Positions 3,696-59,043 of a stretch of 64,000 nucleotides of DNA are shown here, piece after piece. Under the pieces are notes generated by a model, which saw only the letters and a list, made by a program, of their open reading frames with translations, had not been told where the DNA came from and did not search any database. Position 1 is the first letter of the stretch, and every line of letters begins with the position of its first letter. Source of the DNA: Escherichia virus KFS-EC; the sequence record MH560358; one strand, written 5' to 3'. The translations under genes were made by a program, and so were the position numbers.

Positions 3696-4169
3696 TTACT
3701 CCTTATTTTCGCGCTCGTACTTTTCGAAATAAAATTCTACTGGCTGGTCATGAATTGACAGCAAGCCAAAGCGTTTAGCCGCTCGCAATCCCATATTGCG
3801 CTGAATGTACTTCTGGAAGTTCTCGCGTATACACTTACGCCAGTATTCTAAGCCCATACAGCTTTTATAAAGATTGCATTGCACACACGCCGGATTCATG
3901 TTATCAAGTATATCATGTTCCGGTTTATGCATTCCTACAACCTTATACTTCCACGATCCATCATCATTACGGGCAATTCGTCCATTTTCATCATAGACTA
4001 CCTTTGAGCGTCGCAATACTGGTTTGATGTGGTCTGCGTGCCAGCGATCCCCTAGTTCCTCGCCACAATAGGCACAGCGTCCACCATATTTCATTTTCAG
4101 GATCTGGCGTTGCTCTTTCTTTGACAATTTTTTAGGTTTAGGGGCTTTCGACCCTTCATTATCACACAT
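3696..4169 (-). CDS. HNH endonuclease (zinc-finger type), putative homing endonuclease
   Basis: CAYCGEEL...HADHIKP...N...CVQCN motif set. Confidence 0.7.
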   Translation of the reverse strand: MCDNEGSKAPKPKKLSKKEQRQILKMKYGGRCAYCGEELGDRWHADHIKPVLRRSKVVYDENGRIARNDDGSWKYKVVGMHKPEHDILDNMNPACVQCNLYKSCMGLEYWRKCIRENFQKYIQRNMGLRAAKRFGLLSIHDQPVEFYFEKYERENKE

Positions 4170-5658
4170 CGAATACCTCTTTTACTGTATTTGCAGTGGT
4201 CTTGTCGTAGCGAATACGTTTGATGATCGGGAGAAATAAAGAGAACTCCGGTTCATCTTCTTTACGTGATTTGCTGCGAATGTACCCGTTGCATGTCATC
4301 TCAATGACTTTTCCAATCAGGTTATGACGGTCAGCCCATAACATTTCTCGGTCTAGTTCATTTCGACGATCGAACGGAATTACACGTTCAATACCATCAT
4401 CACCTTTTTCGGTTGTGGTGTCGGTTAATCCCGATCCGGTGTTAGTCATCATTCGTCCGCACGCACTACGGACAGTAAAACCGCCTACCTTATTAGGATC
4501 TTTACTATGCGGATATACATCAACAATTTCAGCGTCGAAGTCAATCACTTCTTTAAATTTAACCTGATCTTTACTGCGACGATCTTCAAATACACCATGT
4601 AAATTTTTAAGGATAATACCTTCTAAGCCCATGTTTACATAGCGATGATATACTTCGCGAGCTTCATCGATATTGTTAACTACAGTATTTTCGATTATCT
4701 GAACACGAGGATCGTTAAGTTCTTCAACAATCTGTTTTAGTTCTTCGAATCGATCTTTATATTGCTTCGTTGCTTTCTCGTTTCCGTAATACACATCACG
4801 GTCGATAACATCCCAGACAGTATAAACAATACATTGGGCTTCTTCTTTTGGAATAGTTCCTTTAAGTGATTTGTTGAGGATACCATTTCCGGTCTGACGG
4901 TCTGCAACAACGGATTCTTTTACTGCTTCCGCTACTGGCGTTAATGGCATTTCCTCTTCTTCAAATATCCATGACAGAGTACCATCATAAACGCTTTCAA
5001 CGAAGTTCTGCGCTGGTGTTTGCGAAAGGGTAGGCATATATACCAATTCGCCATCTAGAACAATTCCACGGCCTCGTAGACGCTCTAAAACCGCAAACAA
5101 ATCATCAAGTCCCTGATAGGTATTACCTGAACGGGTATAGATTGCTAATGTTTCCCCGTCAATATCAGCCATACCACGAGCGCCATCGCTTTTAAGTTGT
5201 GCATACGCCGGATACTTGATATTAGCAATAGTCTTATCAGAACATGACGATGCAAGGTGGCACGGCTGCTGGGGGATCAGTTTCTTCCATACCTTGTTTG
5301 CGGTGGTAGCGGAACAACCGCATTCCAAATCACGATTCAGGACCATCATTGCAACTTTAGCATCATCTTCTGACAAGCAGGTCAGAGTATCGGTAACTAG
5401 CTGTAATGCTGCGTTACCAGTTACTTGACGCGTGGCAAGTTTATTTTTAAAGACCTGTAATGCACCGGATAAAGACAATACAGACGAATAACGCGATGGT
5501 TTATCGTATTTCTTTACGCCAAACGTAACCTGTTTGCAATATGCCAGATAAAAGCATTCTTTCAGCGTTTCATTGCTCGCGGATTCTTTCAGGATCTTTT
5601 CTTTCAGCGATGTTTTGTCTGTTGCTGCAAGCTGGTTAATGATATTAAGAATTGACAT
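4162..5658 (-). CDS. 30: ATP-dependent DNA ligase
   Basis: Adenylation motif AQLKSDGARG (KxDG); ~500 aa; T4-like position; start set at internal ATG (track start is GTG). Confidence 0.9.
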   Translation of the reverse strand: MSILNIINQLAATDKTSLKEKILKESASNETLKECFYLAYCKQVTFGVKKYDKPSRYSSVLSLSGALQVFKNKLATRQVTGNAALQLVTDTLTCLSEDDAKVAMMVLNRDLECGCSATTANKVWKKLIPQQPCHLASSCSDKTIANIKYPAYAQLKSDGARGMADIDGETLAIYTRSGNTYQGLDDLFAVLERLRGRGIVLDGELVYMPTLSQTPAQNFVESVYDGTLSWIFEEEEMPLTPVAEAVKESVVADRQTGNGILNKSLKGTIPKEEAQCIVYTVWDVIDRDVYYGNEKATKQYKDRFEELKQIVEELNDPRVQIIENTVVNNIDEAREVYHRYVNMGLEGIILKNLHGVFEDRRSKDQVKFKEVIDFDAEIVDVYPHSKDPNKVGGFTVRSACGRMMTNTGSGLTDTTTEKGDDGIERVIPFDRRNELDREMLWADRHNLIGKVIEMTCNGYIRSKSRKEDEPEFSLFLPIIKRIRYDKTTANTVKEVFDV

Positions 5659-6124
5659 TTTCACCTCGTTTTGTTAAACGTTCACGAATATCATTGAGGA
5701 TACTACAAAATTCCGATTCAGTCAATATAGTCTTTAACGGATCAGTTCCACCTATGCTATGACGTAATTTCTTATTTCCGGTAGCGAGTAATGCTTTACA
5801 AAATTCTGGGTTATTCCGTGCCATCGTAACAAATGCCAGATGTACCAGTCTGTAATAATGCTCACTCATTCGATGAATCGGGCGACCCTGAAAATATAAC
5901 ATGTGATTCTCAATCTTTTCAGATCTTCCGGTTCTTTTTGCTTTGCCACCGTGCATCAAAAAGATTTCTCTTTGTCTCTGAGGGTTCTTAAATCTTAGCC
6001 CCTGTAAAAATCCTTCTGTGCTGTTAATATCGCAACCAAATAGACGGAATGGTCTTTTATTGAAATTACTCAATTCACCCGATGGATAAGGTCCACCCGC
6101 ATAGATATCAATTTCAGAAGTCAT
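5645..6124 (-). CDS. NADAR (YbiA-like) domain protein
   Basis: 159 aa; SNFNKRPFRLFG...TEGFLQGLRF and ...ALLATGNKKLRH resemble the E. coli YbiA/NADAR fold (alignment from memory); 3' end overlaps ligase start. Confidence 0.55.
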   Translation of the reverse strand: MTSEIDIYAGGPYPSGELSNFNKRPFRLFGCDINSTEGFLQGLRFKNPQRQREIFLMHGGKAKRTGRSEKIENHMLYFQGRPIHRMSEHYYRLVHLAFVTMARNNPEFCKALLATGNKKLRHSIGGTDPLKTILTESEFCSILNDIRERLTKRGENVNS

Positions 6125-6360
6125 TGAAACTAATCTCGCTAATCAGAGAGAACGGATCATAATCGTCATTAGGAATATCGATAGTAATCGAATGAGGATT
6201 TACCCATACACCAAACTGGTCTTCATCGGTGAATACTTCGGTATGGATTTCGTGGATGTTTACATTCATAGTTTTCATAATAAAATTCCTTAATAATCAA
6301 TAACTTACAAAATCATATAGCCAAAATATAGGCGGGATTATTTCCCGCCGTTTAAAATCA

Positions 6361-6684
6361 TTAACCGTAAACTACAACAATATTCTGTTTGTGTGTTACA
6401 GTCCATTTCAGATCGATCTCTTCTTCCTTCTTAACGCCATTAATAACGTCTGGATGAGGAACTTTATTAAGTTTCCCATGAGGAAGCAATACAGTCTTGC
6501 CCAGCAATTCTTTATCAACGTTATCACCGATATCAATAATCTTACCGACTAAAGGAATCTCTCCCATAGTTCGTTTTTGCTCGATGATAATACCAAAATC
6601 GCTCTTTACTTCGGTCCCTGCGCTTTCCGCTTTAGCTTCAATGATCACATAGTCACCAAGTGCTTTAGGAGTTTTAACGGTCAT
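6361..6684 (-). CDS. 31: GroES-like co-chaperonin (gp31 family)
   Basis: 107 aa; GDYVII and NKVPHP motifs; position between cd and ligase as in T4. Confidence 0.75.
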   Translation of the reverse strand: MTVKTPKALGDYVIIEAKAESAGTEVKSDFGIIIEQKRTMGEIPLVGKIIDIGDNVDKELLGKTVLLPHGKLNKVPHPDVINGVKKEEEIDLKWTVTHKQNIVVVYG

Positions 6685-6720
6685 AATTTTCTTACCTCTT
6701 CAATTCATCTCAATAGTAAA

Positions 6721-7332
6721 TTATTTATATTTCGCGACCTTTGGATTTCTCCGCAGACCGGAATGTATTTGCGCTATACAACAATAAGAAACATTAAACA
6801 TATCAGCTATAATTTGCTTCTTAACTTTTCCTTTAAGCCGCATTATTTCTTCGACTTGCGCATTTGTCAGTTTTGCCCGTGAGTGGTTTTCACCGACATT
6901 GTTATTGAGTCCAGTTCTAAATGAATGTCTCATATTTTCTAGTAAGGTTACTATTTCTAGATTCCACACATAATTGCAGGTTTTTACACCATTGATGTGA
7001 TTAACCTCAAGTCCGGTAACGTCTCCTAGAAATGCATTTGCTACAAGTCGATGTATCTTTTCGGCTTTAACTGAGATTTTACCATTGTCTTTTTGTTTTG
7101 ACAATGTTGAATAATAATATCCATATCGGTCTAAAATTGGTTTTATTATTTTACCAGCACGTTTTTGTTTTACGAGCTTAATATTACCGGGAGAAACTTC
7201 TCTATAAAATTCGATACTTCGGTCAATAGATCTCAATCTACCATAATTAGAGATTTCATACCACGGATAACCTACAGCTTGTCTCCATTCTTCCGGCGCT
7301 GGTAATACGATATTATCATCTTTTGTTTCCAT
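6721..7332 (-). CDS. HNH homing endonuclease with NUMOD4-like N-terminal motif
   Basis: WRQAVGYPWYEISNYGRLRS (NUMOD4-like) followed by HRLVANAFLG...EVNHINGVKTCN (HNH_3); start at internal ATG. Confidence 0.7.
   Translation of the reverse strand: METKDDNIVLPAPEEWRQAVGYPWYEISNYGRLRSIDRSIEFYREVSPGNIKLVKQKRAGKIIKPILDRYGYYYSTLSKQKDNGKISVKAEKIHRLVANAFLGDVTGLEVNHINGVKTCNYVWNLEIVTLLENMRHSFRTGLNNNVGENHSRAKLTNAQVEEIMRLKGKVKKQIIADMFNVSYCCIAQIHSGLRRNPKVAKYK
6722..6729 (-). promoter_or_regulatory. T4-type late promoter box TATAAATA
   Basis: Exact TATAAATA on minus strand about 40 nt upstream of gene 31 start. Confidence 0.4.
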
Positions 7333-7334
7333 TG

Positions 7335-7655
7335 TCAACTACCACCGTAAATTTCTACGATCTGTGCTGGAGTCAGCCCGTCTACATTAATCAGACTATC
7401 AAGCCCAAAACTACGGAAACCTTCAACTGCAATTTCATATACTGGCAAAGATGTTTCTGATTCTTTACGCGGTTTTTCAACATTAGGAACTAACCACTTT
7501 TCGTATGTTTCGAAAGGCATCAGTGCCGGATCTCGCGTGGCGATCATCTCGCGGACAGTACCATCTTTCTTAGTAAACTGCAAAGAGTGAGTACCGACCG
7601 AAAACATTTTCTTTAGTGCTTCACGAAGTGCGATATTATCAATTTGTTCGGTCAT
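7335..7655 (-). CDS. hypothetical protein (106 aa)
   Basis: ORF-track frame; start moved to internal ATG (track start is TTG). Confidence 0.4.
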   Translation of the reverse strand: MTEQIDNIALREALKKMFSVGTHSLQFTKKDGTVREMIATRDPALMPFETYEKWLVPNVEKPRKESETSLPVYEIAVEGFRSFGLDSLINVDGLTPAQIVEIYGGS

Positions 7656-53291: not shown

Positions 53292-53795
53292 TTAAATTAA
53301 AGAAAATTTGTAAATCTCTATCAGATCGCCATTACACGCGTAAACTTCCTCGATCTCATCAAGGATCATGGTCGTCCCTGTCTTGTATATGCACTCGCGC
53401 TCATCTGCCAACATAGCATACAAAGACAGTCGAGTAGTTGGATTGTCATACTCTTTAGACACCACTCGGTCAATAGCATGTTCGTAATAATTCATGCAAG
53501 GCTTGGTAGGTTTTATTGCAATAATCTTTCCTGTTGCATAAACATCGGTTGCAAAGTCCTCTGCTGTTGATTGCAGTGGCGTAAAGCTCATAGGACGCTC
53601 TACAACGAAAGAATCACCCACAATTAAGGTATCCAGCTTACGGCCTTCTCTTTTGCTCACACCGCGATACAAGGCTTCATGATGCACTAACCGCTCAGTC
53701 TTTTCGATCAATCCATTAAGGATCGACATATCGATATTTTCTTTAGAGTTCATCACTTCATCAATGATGTTAAGTTCTTCTGGTGTAAATTGCAT
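53292..53795 (-). CDS. hypothetical protein (167 aa)
   Basis: ORF track. Confidence 0.4.
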   Translation of the reverse strand: MQFTPEELNIIDEVMNSKENIDMSILNGLIEKTERLVHHEALYRGVSKREGRKLDTLIVGDSFVVERPMSFTPLQSTAEDFATDVYATGKIIAIKPTKPCMNYYEHAIDRVVSKEYDNPTTRLSLYAMLADERECIYKTGTTMILDEIEEVYACNGDLIEIYKFSLI

Positions 53796-54393: not shown

Positions 54394-54957
54394 TCAAATA
54401 ACATTAAACACTGCAAATTCACCGTGATACTTATACGCATAGTCATTATATACTATTGCGGCGTCTATTTCTAGGTCAAATTGTCCTATATAGACTTTAT
54501 TTCCTTCATTGTCCCTTATCTGGGCGACCCATTTACCCGAACGACTATTATAATGCACTCCTTTAAAATTGCTAGTTTTAGTTTGGTTATTTCTTCTCAT
54601 ATTTTGGGTATTCTGTTTTTGTGTCGCCTCTCTTAAGTTTGGAGGGTCGTTGTTTTCTGGATTCCCGTCAATATGGTCAATGACAGGTGGGCAATACCCA
54701 TGCTCTAAGAAGAATACTATTCTATGCACAAGCTCAAAATATTGTTTTCCTTCAAAAGAAAACGAGACTTTTAGGTGTCCGGCTGTGACTTTAGATACCT
54801 TTACTATATCACCAACCTTATAAAACTGGCCTTCTTTCGTCGTTCGGCTTGCTTTGCTGTTTGTTTTATGAATCAATATACCACTTTCGTGTCTATATCT
54901 TCGACGTATTTCATCCTTTAGTTCATCGCTCCATTCTTTGGCTTTCCTTACCCTCAC
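54394..54957 (-). CDS. HNH homing endonuclease with C-terminal AP2-like domain
   Basis: HRIVFFLEHG...IDHIDGNPENNDPPNLREAT plus FKGVHY...WVAQI...IGQFDLEIDAAIVYN; paralog of 24511-25092. Confidence 0.7.
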   Translation of the reverse strand: MRVRKAKEWSDELKDEIRRRYRHESGILIHKTNSKASRTTKEGQFYKVGDIVKVSKVTAGHLKVSFSFEGKQYFELVHRIVFFLEHGYCPPVIDHIDGNPENNDPPNLREATQKQNTQNMRRNNQTKTSNFKGVHYNSRSGKWVAQIRDNEGNKVYIGQFDLEIDAAIVYNDYAYKYHGEFAVFNVI

Positions 54958-54974
54958 AATACAACCCTCATTAA

Positions 54975-56003
54975 TTAAAATTTACAATATTTCATAAACC
55001 GCATTTTAGCCATCAGACCTTGTACGGTGTTCTCTTTGATATATTCCATGATCTGGTCGCGTGTAGCGCCCTCGTCCTGAATCATGGCGTTAACGTCTTT
55101 AGAATGCCACGGGCAACGGTCCCACAATACAATCTTTTCCCCTGCATTGATAAACTTTTCCAGTCGGTGCATTGTATCGGCAGACCGTGGTTCCGCATCA
55201 AGTACAAACACTCGCTGGTCTGGGAAAGGGATTTCATCTAATCCCAAAGTACCGCCAGTAATTGCACACCCGTTATCAATAAACAATGAATCGATCGGAC
55301 CTTCTAAGAAATACACTGGTTTACTCGGATCGGCGCGTTCAAGACCATAGACCTTACTCGCTAACTCGTGAGTTTTAATCGTCATATATTTGGTCTTTCC
55401 GTAATCCTTTCTCAATGCTCGCCCCTGAATGGATTCTATCTTGTTCTCGCGGTTAAAGATAGGAATCACTAAACGTGGTTCAGGTTGTGGATTCTTGAAA
55501 GTATCAGCCTTAATGTGATTTGCTACCTTTTGCCATTCTCTCGTGAAATACAGAAGATCCCATTTATCGTGAGGGATGCAACGATCACTGACATACTTTA
55601 TTATAGGATGATTAGCCGGAAGAGTATCTAATCTCTCGCAGAAAGGCAATGTTTGCACTTTCTTAATCTCCGACTTTTCTACCTTTTTCAGTGGCTTGAA
55701 CGTGGTGTTCTTGTGGTCGCCTTGTTCCTTCCGTCGTTCCATAAGCCATTCCCTGAATAGGTCCGGCTTATACTGTTTGAGAAATTCACCTAACGGCTGA
55801 TTGTAGTTACAGTTGAAACAGCCGCAACGCAAACTATCCTTATAGGTATAGATACGGAATCGCGCTTGAGTATGATTTTTCTTTGAGTCACCGCAGATCG
55901 GACAACTACAGACCAGCGTAAATGAGCTAGTATGCAACCGTTTAAAATTTCGTTCGCCGTATATGGCTTTTTCCGCTATTTCATAATCTGCGTAGTAAAT
56001 CAT
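54975..56003 (-). CDS. 61: DNA primase
   Basis: Zinc ribbon CPICGDSKKN...CFNC plus TOPRIM region; 342 aa. Confidence 0.9.
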   Translation of the reverse strand: MIYYADYEIAEKAIYGERNFKRLHTSSFTLVCSCPICGDSKKNHTQARFRIYTYKDSLRCGCFNCNYNQPLGEFLKQYKPDLFREWLMERRKEQGDHKNTTFKPLKKVEKSEIKKVQTLPFCERLDTLPANHPIIKYVSDRCIPHDKWDLLYFTREWQKVANHIKADTFKNPQPEPRLVIPIFNRENKIESIQGRALRKDYGKTKYMTIKTHELASKVYGLERADPSKPVYFLEGPIDSLFIDNGCAITGGTLGLDEIPFPDQRVFVLDAEPRSADTMHRLEKFINAGEKIVLWDRCPWHSKDVNAMIQDEGATRDQIMEYIKENTVQGLMAKMRFMKYCKF

Positions 56004-56012
56004 AATAACCTC

Positions 56013-56216
56013 TTATAGCTCAAATTTCATGAAAGTTCCTACACTTTCATTTTCATTCTCTCCGTTTTCATCTAAGCCAAATTTGTAGACACTACCATCT
56101 GGCGATGTGTAAGAGAATACACGAAAACGGCCTACCGAATCAAGTTCTGTAAATTCATATTCTTTTCCGGCTTCAAAAAGTGCATATGTGCTTTTAAGAC
56201 ATTTCATCGTAATCAT
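56013..56216 (-). CDS. hypothetical small protein (67 aa)
   Basis: ORF track. Confidence 0.35.
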   Translation of the reverse strand: MITMKCLKSTYALFEAGKEYEFTELDSVGRFRVFSYTSPDGSVYKFGLDENGENENESVGTFMKFEL

Positions 56217-56536
56217 TTAAGCGCCACCGACAACAGAATGAGAACTACACCAACATACATTGTGATCTCGGATAACTTTTCTGTTTTTGTTTTGTGTCCA
56301 GATAATCCGAAAACAACAACACCGATAATAGCGGACAGCAAGCCAACGATAAACATGATGATACTAAGCACCGTCTTTCTCCTTTTTGCGTTTTTCTTTA
56401 CCCGCTACACTAGGTCCACGATTGGTAATAGATCCGCTCGTTTCACCTGCTGCGATCTTCTCAGGATTGCCGCCAGCATCGCCAGTGGTCATATCTTCTT
56501 TGAGTTTATTTTCTTCAACAAACTGTTTAAATCCAA

Positions 56537-56914
56537 TCATAGAATAATCTCTTTCAGTAAGTCAACAATCTGGTCTTTCGTCAGTTTATCCTGATTCTCT
56601 ACAATCTTGATAACACAAGCATTAACATCTTTTCGAGTCACGCGGGAGATCGTTTTAATACGATGAAACGGTTCGTAGAAATATACTGCTTCATTATAGA
56701 GCGCAGCAATTTTTCGACGCATTTGATCTTTATCTGACAAGAAAACAAGTGCTGTTTTATGACCTTCTACACCCGCCACGTTATATAGTTCAGCAACACC
56801 CCAGCGACCTTCCGGTTCAATCATTCCGGCGTGTTTACCGTCGATAAAAATAAGAATATCTCCGTTGAATGCGGTTTTGAATGCTACATCTTCCGGCGTA
56901 ATCATATTTTTCAT
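56537..56914 (-). CDS. hypothetical protein (125 aa)
   Basis: ORF track. Confidence 0.4.
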   Translation of the reverse strand: MKNMITPEDVAFKTAFNGDILIFIDGKHAGMIEPEGRWGVAELYNVAGVEGHKTALVFLSDKDQMRRKIAALYNEAVYFYEPFHRIKTISRVTRKDVNACVIKIVENQDKLTKDQIVDLLKEIIL

Positions 56915-56944
56915 AATATAGTCTCCTTAGAGTTTCATTATAGA

Positions 56945-57580
56945 TCAAGCGAATGTAGAAAGCAAATGTTTTGTTTCTTTCAGTTGTCGTTCAAGATCTT
57001 TGCGTTTCTCTTTAAGTTGCATTTTAGCATTATTTCGCTGTTTTTCAACATCTTTATCAATACTCTTATTCCAGTTATCAATATCAGAATAAGTTGGCAT
57101 ACCCAATTCTAGACCTAATGCGGTTGGATACAAGGTAACAGTCCATAAACCGCTAATCTTCTTAAATAGGTCGGGGTGTAGTGTACTATCTACATCTTCC
57201 GGTGTCAACTCTTTTTCTTCTTTCAGTGGTGGGATCTCGTCATATGGTTCCAGTGCATTTACTTTAATGTCAGATACCTCATCAAAGAATCCGCGTACAT
57301 CCGCAGGAAATACACAAGCAATTTCCCAACCGTGATCACGCAGAGAAGTAATATTTTTCACTCCCCCACCATGTGTGATGATTGATGTGACATTGCCATC
57401 AAGGTCCACCGAATTTACGAGAAATGGCTTATCGTCTGTCAGATCATTATAAAACTGTGCTTCGGCTGTAGTCATCTCCAGAAACAGATCTCGGATCGGA
57501 CGACCATCAGGTGCGTTACCTTCCTTGAGAGTATAAAAGCGACTTACGATCCATTTTGGCGGTAAAGCATTAGCGATCAT
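56945..57580 (-). CDS. hypothetical protein (211 aa)
   Basis: ORF track; SD AGGAGA upstream. Confidence 0.45.
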   Translation of the reverse strand: MIANALPPKWIVSRFYTLKEGNAPDGRPIRDLFLEMTTAEAQFYNDLTDDKPFLVNSVDLDGNVTSIITHGGGVKNITSLRDHGWEIACVFPADVRGFFDEVSDIKVNALEPYDEIPPLKEEKELTPEDVDSTLHPDLFKKISGLWTVTLYPTALGLELGMPTYSDIDNWNKSIDKDVEKQRNNAKMQLKEKRKDLERQLKETKHLLSTFA

Positions 57581-57630: not shown

Positions 57631-59043
57631 TTAGAAAGTCATGTTATTTGCTAGCTCGTCGAGTTTTTCTCGTTTCTCGGCTTGCTGTGCGCTTTGTGGT
57701 TTAACCTGTGCATTCTCCTGATCTGCGATCTGGTTTGGGACTTCATACCAACGCTGATTGCCTTTTTTCACACCAACGTTAAACCGTGAATAATAGTTCT
57801 TATCACCGTAACGAGACTTGATCTGCTTCATGAGTTGGACGCCCATTTTAGCCAGGTCTTCGGTTTCGATAACACCCAACATAAAGTCGGCAGTAGCCGG
57901 AAGACCTGCCGATTCAGCGGTATCACTCATGTTAAGGTCGGAAGCATCCCAACCCGCGCGGGTAGTCTGTGCCGCAGTCCAACCAACAACATCCCACTTA
58001 ACAAAAAATCCTCGCAGTTCTTCCGCAATCGCCTTAACTAGTGTGTAACTATTTTCAGAGTATACACGCAAGCGAGACGATGCGCAAATCCCAAGATAGT
58101 CAACAATCACAACATCAGGTTTAAACTGTTTCTTGAGTCGCAATTCATTCATTAACGCCTCAAAGTGATTGGAGTTCGCGCCACCAGTCGGATACTGCTT
58201 GATCATCAATTTTCCAACCGGACGATCTCCGTTCTTCTTATTCTTAACCCGCTTCATACGTGCGGAATATTCCGCAAAAGAAACATTACCATTATCCAAT
58301 TCATCTAATGTAATGTCAAGCAAGTTTGCGTCAATACGTTTGGCTACGACATGCTCTGCCATCTCCATTGAGATATACAATACATCATAACCACATTCCA
58401 TATAATCCGCAGCAAGAGAACACAGTCCAAGCGATTTGCCAACGTTTACACCAGCAAGCAACACATTTAGCGTTTTTCTTTCCGCCCCTCCTTTCGTGAT
58501 TTTATTCAACATCGGCAGCTTAAATGGGATCTTATTCGCCTTAGTCTGATATAACAGGAATCGTTTTTCAAAGTCATTAAACCAGTCATGACCTACATCA
58601 GAATCAAACGTAATGGATAGTGCTTCCTGCATAATTTCAGGAATAGCGCCCTCACTAGGCAATTTCTTATTCTGTTTCTCTTTTGGTAGTTGTGCGTTCG
58701 CCTGAATCTCTAGCGCCCGTGACATTGCATTGTACATAGCACGGTCACGAATAAATTTTTCGGTTTCCTTCATTAACCAATCAAGGTCTTCCGGTGTATT
58801 CTCCAGCGAATCGAGAAGAGTTTTAGCCCCTTCATATGTTGTCTGATTGCCTCTCTCCTTGTCTAAAGCAATCTGTAATGCAGTTGGCGTAGGAATATTG
58901 GAATATTCGTCTACGTGCTTTTTAATCAGCTTATAAATCAGTTTTTCTTCGTCTTCGGTGAAGTAGTCCGCTTTAAGGTGAGGCCATACATTCGTAAAGA
59001 ATGCGCCATTGTAAATCAACTGTGAAAAGATAGTTTTAATCAT
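57631..59043 (-). CDS. 41: replicative DNA helicase (DnaB-like)
   Basis: Walker A GVNVGKS; 470 aa. Confidence 0.95.
   Translation of the reverse strand: MIKTIFSQLIYNGAFFTNVWPHLKADYFTEDEEKLIYKLIKKHVDEYSNIPTPTALQIALDKERGNQTTYEGAKTLLDSLENTPEDLDWLMKETEKFIRDRAMYNAMSRALEIQANAQLPKEKQNKKLPSEGAIPEIMQEALSITFDSDVGHDWFNDFEKRFLLYQTKANKIPFKLPMLNKITKGGAERKTLNVLLAGVNVGKSLGLCSLAADYMECGYDVLYISMEMAEHVVAKRIDANLLDITLDELDNGNVSFAEYSARMKRVKNKKNGDRPVGKLMIKQYPTGGANSNHFEALMNELRLKKQFKPDVVIVDYLGICASSRLRVYSENSYTLVKAIAEELRGFFVKWDVVGWTAAQTTRAGWDASDLNMSDTAESAGLPATADFMLGVIETEDLAKMGVQLMKQIKSRYGDKNYYSRFNVGVKKGNQRWYEVPNQIADQENAQVKPQSAQQAEKREKLDELANNMTF

Follow-up and report, generated by a model that had tools for sequence, protein, structure and literature searches.

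A 159-aa open reading frame (ORF) runs into the start of the DNA ligase gene of Escherichia virus KFS-EC, and its position and sequence raise the question of whether the phage encodes an enzyme that frees its DNA from ADP-ribose attached by the host. The window analyzed is a stretch of 64,000 nt of record MH560358, and all features described lie on its minus strand (Table 1). An initial annotation, made from the sequence, had described the ORF as a NADAR-domain protein and a candidate for counter-defense against DNA ADP-ribosylation, and had taken its place in the ligase operon as fitting a role in repairing or reversing ADP-ribosylation inflicted on the DNA by the host.

Identity and conservation of gene 30.3

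The ORF was recovered exactly as initially delimited, with an ATG start and a translation that contains SNFNKRPFRLFG, GFLQGLRF, and ALLATGNKKLRH. The encoded protein matched the Pfam family PF08010 ("Bacteriophage protein GP30.3") over profile positions 2-138 of 138 (132.4 bits, cut-off 36; E = 1.3e-38) and matched PHROG 652 (E = 2.9e-45). Homologs were found by tblastn in 1508 of 50,697 phage records, with hosts that include Escherichia, Klebsiella, Aeromonas, Acinetobacter, and Vibrio, and an exhaustive HMMER search of the family yielded 974 clusters (50% identity) at E ≤ 1e-3. The dN/dS values among the copies of the window, RB49, ECD7, and a metagenomic Krischvirus-like relative, the latter only 69% identical, ranged from 0.02 to 0.13, and the gene is under purifying selection. 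Thus, the family matches, the number of records and clusters, and the low dN/dS together identify 30.3 as a real gene and not a chance ORF.

Table 1 Features of the gene 30.3 region and of the primase-helicase interval in the window
Feature	Position	Strand	Description
Gene 30.3 (adfN ortholog)	5645..6124	-	159-aa single-domain phage NADAR, ATG start
Gene 30 (downstream neighbor)	4162..5658	-	ATP-dependent DNA ligase; PF01068, E = 2.8e-22; phrog_114, E = 1.4e-141
30.3/30 junction	5645..5667	-	GAGG ribosome-binding site (5667..5664) and ligase ATG (5658..5656) inside the end of 30.3
Gene 31.-1 (upstream neighbor)	6114..6278	-	54-aa acidic protein, phrog_15277, E = 2.3e-41; function unknown; present in RB49-type phages
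Terminator-like GC hairpin and T-run	6331..6349	-	Pattern scan, consensus match only; separates gene 31 from 31.-1/30.3/30
Glu37 codon	6014..6016	-	Catalytic Glu of E-x6-K; equivalent to T4 E36, P. nicotianae NADAR E43, E. coli C7 NADAR E88
Arg44 codon	5993..5995	-	Natural Lys-to-Arg at the ADP-ribose phosphate-binding Lys of E-x6-K (T4 K43, P. nicotianae K50, E. coli C7 K95)
His122 codon	5759..5761	-	Histidine after the last strand, in KLRHSIGG; mark of phage (gp30.3-type) NADARs
C-terminal helix region	5648..5718	-	Residues 136-157 in the model; intact; alignment reaches the T4 C-terminus
Primase-helicase slot	56013..57580	-	Unrelated ORFs phrog_16187 and phrog_16174, functions unknown; between primase (54975..56003) and helicase gp41 (57631..59043)

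Region 5000-7000 of the window is 95-99% identical to 58 phage records, and nearly all of these are Krischvirus phages (the RB49 group of T4-type phages) of Escherichia or Shigella. The closest described protein, RB49 gp30.3 (CAD79437, GenBank AJ550428), is 99.4% identical, with one residue different (T in RB49, S68 in the window), and is flanked by the same genes 31.-1 and 30 with the same overlaps. The RB49 record annotates it just as "unknown", and the RefSeq label of the ECD7 counterpart is "gp30.3 conserved hypothetical protein".

The protein is an ortholog of T4 gp30.3, now named AdfN. Both are single-domain members of PF08010 that align over their full length (39% identity, E = 1e-30), share the catalytic Glu, the phage-type His, and an intact C-terminal helix, and are encoded in the same neighborhood of a T4-type genome, between genes 31 and 30. 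They differ in genus (Tequatrovirus in T4, Krischvirus in the window), in length (152 aa in T4; the window protein has seven extra C-terminal residues), and at one active-site position, which is Lys43 in T4 and Arg44 in the window. The protein has been catalogued as a member of the gp30.3 family since the RB49 sequence was deposited, and the function of the T4 ortholog is already known.

The family survey also revealed other architectures. Two gp30.3-type domains occur in tandem in some metagenomic relatives (P0019, P0020, P0067, P0118, and P0128), and the second copy lacks the catalytic Glu or His in some of them. Many other relatives are fused to further domains and are 250-540 aa long.

NADAR fold and active-site residues

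The NADAR pattern read in the initial annotation held at the level of the sister family PF08010 and of the fold, but not at that of the generic NADAR profile: PF08719 matched below significance (15.5 bits against a threshold of 35.1, E = 0.021), so that the assignment rests on fold and sister family. Sixteen of 65 family members matched PF08719 individually at E ≤ 0.01 (best E = 1.1e-6). A profile built from the 65 sequences aligned to E. coli YbiA (E = 1.2e-3) and to the NADAR of P. nicotianae (E = 0.33), and in the profile alignments to YbiA and 8bau the family motif S-x-E-G-F-L-Q-x-x-K fell on the NADAR motif E-x6-K. When the predicted structure was searched with Foldseek, NADAR-fold matches were obtained with TM 0.66 and 0.61, the remainder being noise; the top match was E. 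coli YbiA. As modeled, the 30.3 protein has the YbiA/NADAR three-dimensional fold. Earlier bioinformatic studies had already assigned gp30.3 proteins to the NADAR superfamily as its phage branch. When PDB sequences were searched with the single 30.3 sequence, no NADAR was found; the top match, a D-alanyl carrier protein ligase (E = 2.8e-4), was discarded as spurious, being partial and unsupported by fold, profile, or context.

The equivalences of residues Glu37, Arg44, and His122 were set by sequence and profile alignments. Glu37, aligned through BLASTP to T4 and through profiles to YbiA and 8bau, is Glu in 161 of approximately 165 family domains; the catalytic role of the residue at the T4 E36 position has been reported (PMC11825919, PMC11543638). 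His122 is conserved in 160 of approximately 163 domains, is invariant in alignments A1 and A2, and is immediately preceded by the modeled strand 119-121. The residue at this last-strand position distinguishes phage NADARs (His) from YbiA-type (Glu) and DarG1-type (Asp) proteins (PMC11125620, PMC11543638). The C-terminal helix is intact in the window protein; in the DarTG1-sensitive phage RB69, a natural frameshift deletes this helix from gp30.3, and the loss was tied to sensitivity by the authors (PMC11825919).

Function of the 30.3 protein

The statement of the initial annotation that NADARs remove ADP-ribose from guanine in DNA and serve as DarT antitoxins agrees with Schuller et al. (2023, PMC11543638), who demonstrated that guanine-linked ADP-ribose is hydrolyzed by NADARs and that the DarG1 antitoxin of DarT1 is a NADAR. 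T4 gp30.3 was renamed AdfN ("anti-DarT factor NADAR") by Johannesman et al. (Nat Commun 2025, PMC11825919), who traced the resistance of T-even phages against DarTG1 to this gene. In that study, deletion of adfN made T4 sensitive to DarTG1, expressed adfN rescued RB69, and the substitutions E36A and K43A impaired the protein, with partial rescue by K43A. In vitro, AdfN freed DNA of ADP-ribose. A two-hybrid assay detected no stable association between AdfN and DarT1, and AdfN-T4 was fully effective only during T-even infection (PMC11825919). In an independent transposon screen of T4, adfN was conditionally essential on DarTG1. Purified T4 gp30.3 removed guanine-ADPr in vitro but not thymidine-ADPr (PMC11125620, PMC12945103).

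The proposed counter-defense role therefore coincides with the published function of the ortholog, an anti-DarTG1 enzyme, and is supported by it. By analogy with T4, the ORF probably is the Krischvirus (RB49-type) ortholog of T4 30.3 in function as well, that is, a NADAR ADP-ribosylglycohydrolase that counters DarTG1. We infer from T4 the enzymatic activity, the guanine-ADPr target on DNA, and the anti-DarTG1 phenotype of the window allele. A free-standing, core-only NADAR-fold protein would be produced during infection, as in T4, and would hydrolyze the N-glycosidic bond between ADP-ribose and guanine (N2-guanine) placed by the host DarT1 on phage DNA. Removal of the ADP-ribose would relieve the block and allow replication to proceed. 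The protein would thereby act as an orphan mimic of the antitoxin, by enzymatic action and not by binding of the toxin. Several points count against this explanation, among them Arg44 in place of Lys43, the 39% identity to T4, and the sub-threshold PF08719 match. Because AdfN-T4 is fully effective only in T-even infections, transfer of the function to another genus is not guaranteed, and a literature search for RB49 and Krischvirus phages found no DarTG test or phenotype.

Known NADARs outside the gp30.3 family differ from the window protein in several respects. The DarG1 antitoxins (the BC4488 family, with the G. lovleyi 8BAT and E. coli C7 proteins) are encoded beside DarT1, carry Asp in the last strand, and are longer (219 against 159 residues) by an N-terminal extension, whereas the window protein lies between 31.-1 and the ligase gene, carries His122, and lacks the extension. 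DarG1 proteins are antitoxins, whereas the T4 member of the window's family cannot act as one in uninfected cells. The window protein would share the mode of action of DarG1 but falls outside the DarG1 family. E. coli YbiA (2B3W) and the P. nicotianae NADAR (8BAU) carry Glu where the window protein carries His, are only marginally similar in sequence (profile E = 1e-3 and 0.33, respectively), and belong to other biological contexts. AdfN-Bas32 and AdfN-Bas60, from T5-like and Vequintavirinae phages, are, like the 30.3 protein, phage-borne orphan NADARs, and both counter DarTG1; they represent other, independently acquired NADAR branches that need no T-even-specific context (PMC11825919), whereas the window protein is placed on the T4-superfamily branch.

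T4 also encodes a second anti-DarT factor, AdfA (gp61.2), in the interval between primase and helicase that holds 61.1, 61.2, sp, and dmd. Neither a tblastn search of the window nor inspection of the syntenic primase-helicase slot revealed an AdfA homolog. As judged from the sequence, 30.3 is the sole recognizable anti-DarT factor within this window.

An active NADAR hydrolase could also have a main substrate other than DarT1-modified DNA, which we regard as unlikely. Such a substrate could be guanine-ADPr on RNA, a soluble ADP-ribose derivative (an immune signal or toxin), or an adduct made by the phage's own ADP-ribosyltransferases. Guanine-ADPr on RNA is removed in vitro by all NADAR families (PMC12945103), and the failure of AdfN-T4 to neutralize DarT1 outside T-even infection is in line with another substrate. 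The window itself encodes a Mod-like ADP-ribosyltransferase (53292..53795, minus strand, 167 aa; phrog_832 "RNA polymerase ADP-ribosylase", E = 1e-20), with 33% identity to T4 ModB over 113 aa, so that the phage encodes both an ADP-ribosyltransferase and a NADAR hydrolase. Against other substrates stand the direct and strong DarTG1 phenotype of T4, seen both on deletion and in the transposon screen, the inability of the T4 NADAR to attack thymidine-ADPr, and the lack of a reported phenotype with respect to other substrates.

The substitution at position 44 bears on how far the T4 function extends to the window allele. In the family survey (approximately 165 domains), this column is Lys in 151, Arg in 10 (approximately 6%), and another residue in 4. 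The Arg-bearing members are scattered: their identity to each other is only 30-61%, several have a closer relative among the Lys-bearing sequences than among those with Arg, and most retain the Glu and the His. Each of the four Krischvirus-like copies that were compared (those of the window, RB49, and ECD7 and the 69%-identical one) carries Arg. This scattered recurrence, together with fixation, suggests a tolerated functional variant and not decay, and we favor the reading of Arg44 as neutral and tolerated.

It is doubtful that the Lys-to-Arg change marks a functional shift of the Krischvirus AdfN, with tight translational coupling to the ligase as part of the adaptation. Such a shift could consist of tuning to the DNA of RB49-type phages, which contains unmodified cytosine, or to another host ADP-ribosyltransferase or another nucleic-acid adduct. 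Somewhat less likely still is a weakened or specificity-shifted allele, in which the change cuts efficiency and DarTG1 protection is lost or partial. The position is that of T4 K43, at which alanine leaves only part of the rescue, and in the DarG1 NADAR of E. coli C7 the K95R substitution retained hydrolysis in vitro but lost the rescue from DarT1 toxicity (Schuller et al. 2023, PMC11543638). However, Arg is fixed in Krischvirus-like copies down to 69% identity under a dN/dS of approximately 0.1, and it recurs in unrelated sub-lineages of the family in which the catalytic residues are mostly kept.

If the preferred AdfN-like function holds, RB49-type coliphages would carry the AdfN counter-defense gene in a compact form, which could be used in forecasting which therapeutic or model phages should resist E. 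coli that bears DarTG1. The natural Arg44 would also lend itself to testing if a change that disables a bacterial antitoxin in vivo is tolerated by phage NADARs, and hence what sets AdfN apart from DarG1.

The junction with DNA ligase and neighboring genes

The overlap between the ORF and the ligase start, as initially noted, is real. It spans 14 nt (5645..5658) when counted from the ligase ATG at 5658, and 20 nt from the mechanical GTG start at 5664. Annotations of RB49 and ECD7 place the ligase start at the ATG, which is preceded by GAGG, a ribosome-binding site also marked in RB49, and an identical 14-nt overlap was found in the divergent metagenomic relative L009. Such an overlap suggests translational coupling of 30.3 and 30. 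At the opposite end, the stop of 31.-1 overlaps the start of 30.3 by 11 nt.

The gene order in T4 is 31, rIII, 30.9 to 30.4, 30.3, 30.2, 30.1, 30, and alt, and that in Acinetobacter Lazarusvirus is 30.3, 30.2, 30, and alt. In the window and in L009, only 31.-1 and 30.3 are left between 31 and 30; T4 Alt, 30.1, 30.2, and 30.4 had no matches within the window. Thus, 30.3 lies apart from the ligase gene in T4, but the absence of 30.1 and 30.2 from the window brings it into contact with that gene. Neither Aeromonas phage phiAS4 nor Rhizobium phage RHph_Y68 has its 30.3 homolog near a ligase. These gene orders identify the contact as inherited T4-type synteny in compacted form, with varied linkage in other phages, and the placement in the ligase operon was rejected as a sign of a repair role. 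The contact probably ensures only co-expression.

It is very improbable, for the same reason, that 30.3 is a DNA-repair accessory of the ligase and that the overlap with gene 30 forms a functional module for adduct removal followed by sealing. The conservation of the 14-nt overlap in RB49, ECD7, and L009 and the proximity of 30.3 to gene 30 in T4 and Acinetobacter Lazarusvirus would agree with a module, but after NADAR hydrolysis the base is intact again and there is no nick to be sealed (PMC11543638), 30.2 separates the two genes in both T4 and Lazarusvirus (in T4 together with 30.1), and the phiAS4 and RHph_Y68 homologs are unlinked to the ligase. A YbiA-type N-glycosidase of riboflavin-pathway intermediates is the least credible reading, since, although E. 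coli YbiA is the best structural match, His122 stands where the YbiA family has its defining last-strand Glu, the T4 member of the phage gp30.3 family, to which the protein belongs, acts on DNA, and riboflavin damage control is of no obvious use to a lytic phage.

Relatives G37-3 and G2494 carry a "terminator" annotation in the region corresponding to the terminator-like hairpin of the window. A pattern scan found neither a late nor a sigma-70 promoter directly upstream of 31.-1/30.3. The T4 late-promoter consensus TATAAATA occurs only once nearby, at 6722..6729 (minus strand), where it serves gene 31: the start of that gene follows 38 nt downstream, and the motif overlaps with the stop codon of a homing-endonuclease ORF. 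Because TATAAATA occurs near gene 31 only and not ahead of 31.-1/30.3, the timing of 30.3 expression stays inferred.

Three endonuclease-like ORFs, all on the minus strand, accompany these genes. An HNH endonuclease ORF of 157 aa (3696..4169; Pfam HNH, E = 5e-6; phrog_2118, E = 2e-54) lies directly downstream of the ligase gene, overlaps its stop by 8 nt, and probably encodes a homing endonuclease that travels with gene 30. The homing-endonuclease ORF between gene 31 and gene 31.1 (6721..7338, 205 aa) is of the NUMOD4/HNH type. Its insertion varies among strains, as many Krischvirus relatives align only to approximately position 6707 (85% of region 5000-7000 covered). The ORF that adjoins the primase gene (54394..54957, 187 aa) has HNH/AP2-like features, judged by eye (HIDGNPENN and GVHYNSRSGKWVAQI), and is probably a further homing endonuclease.
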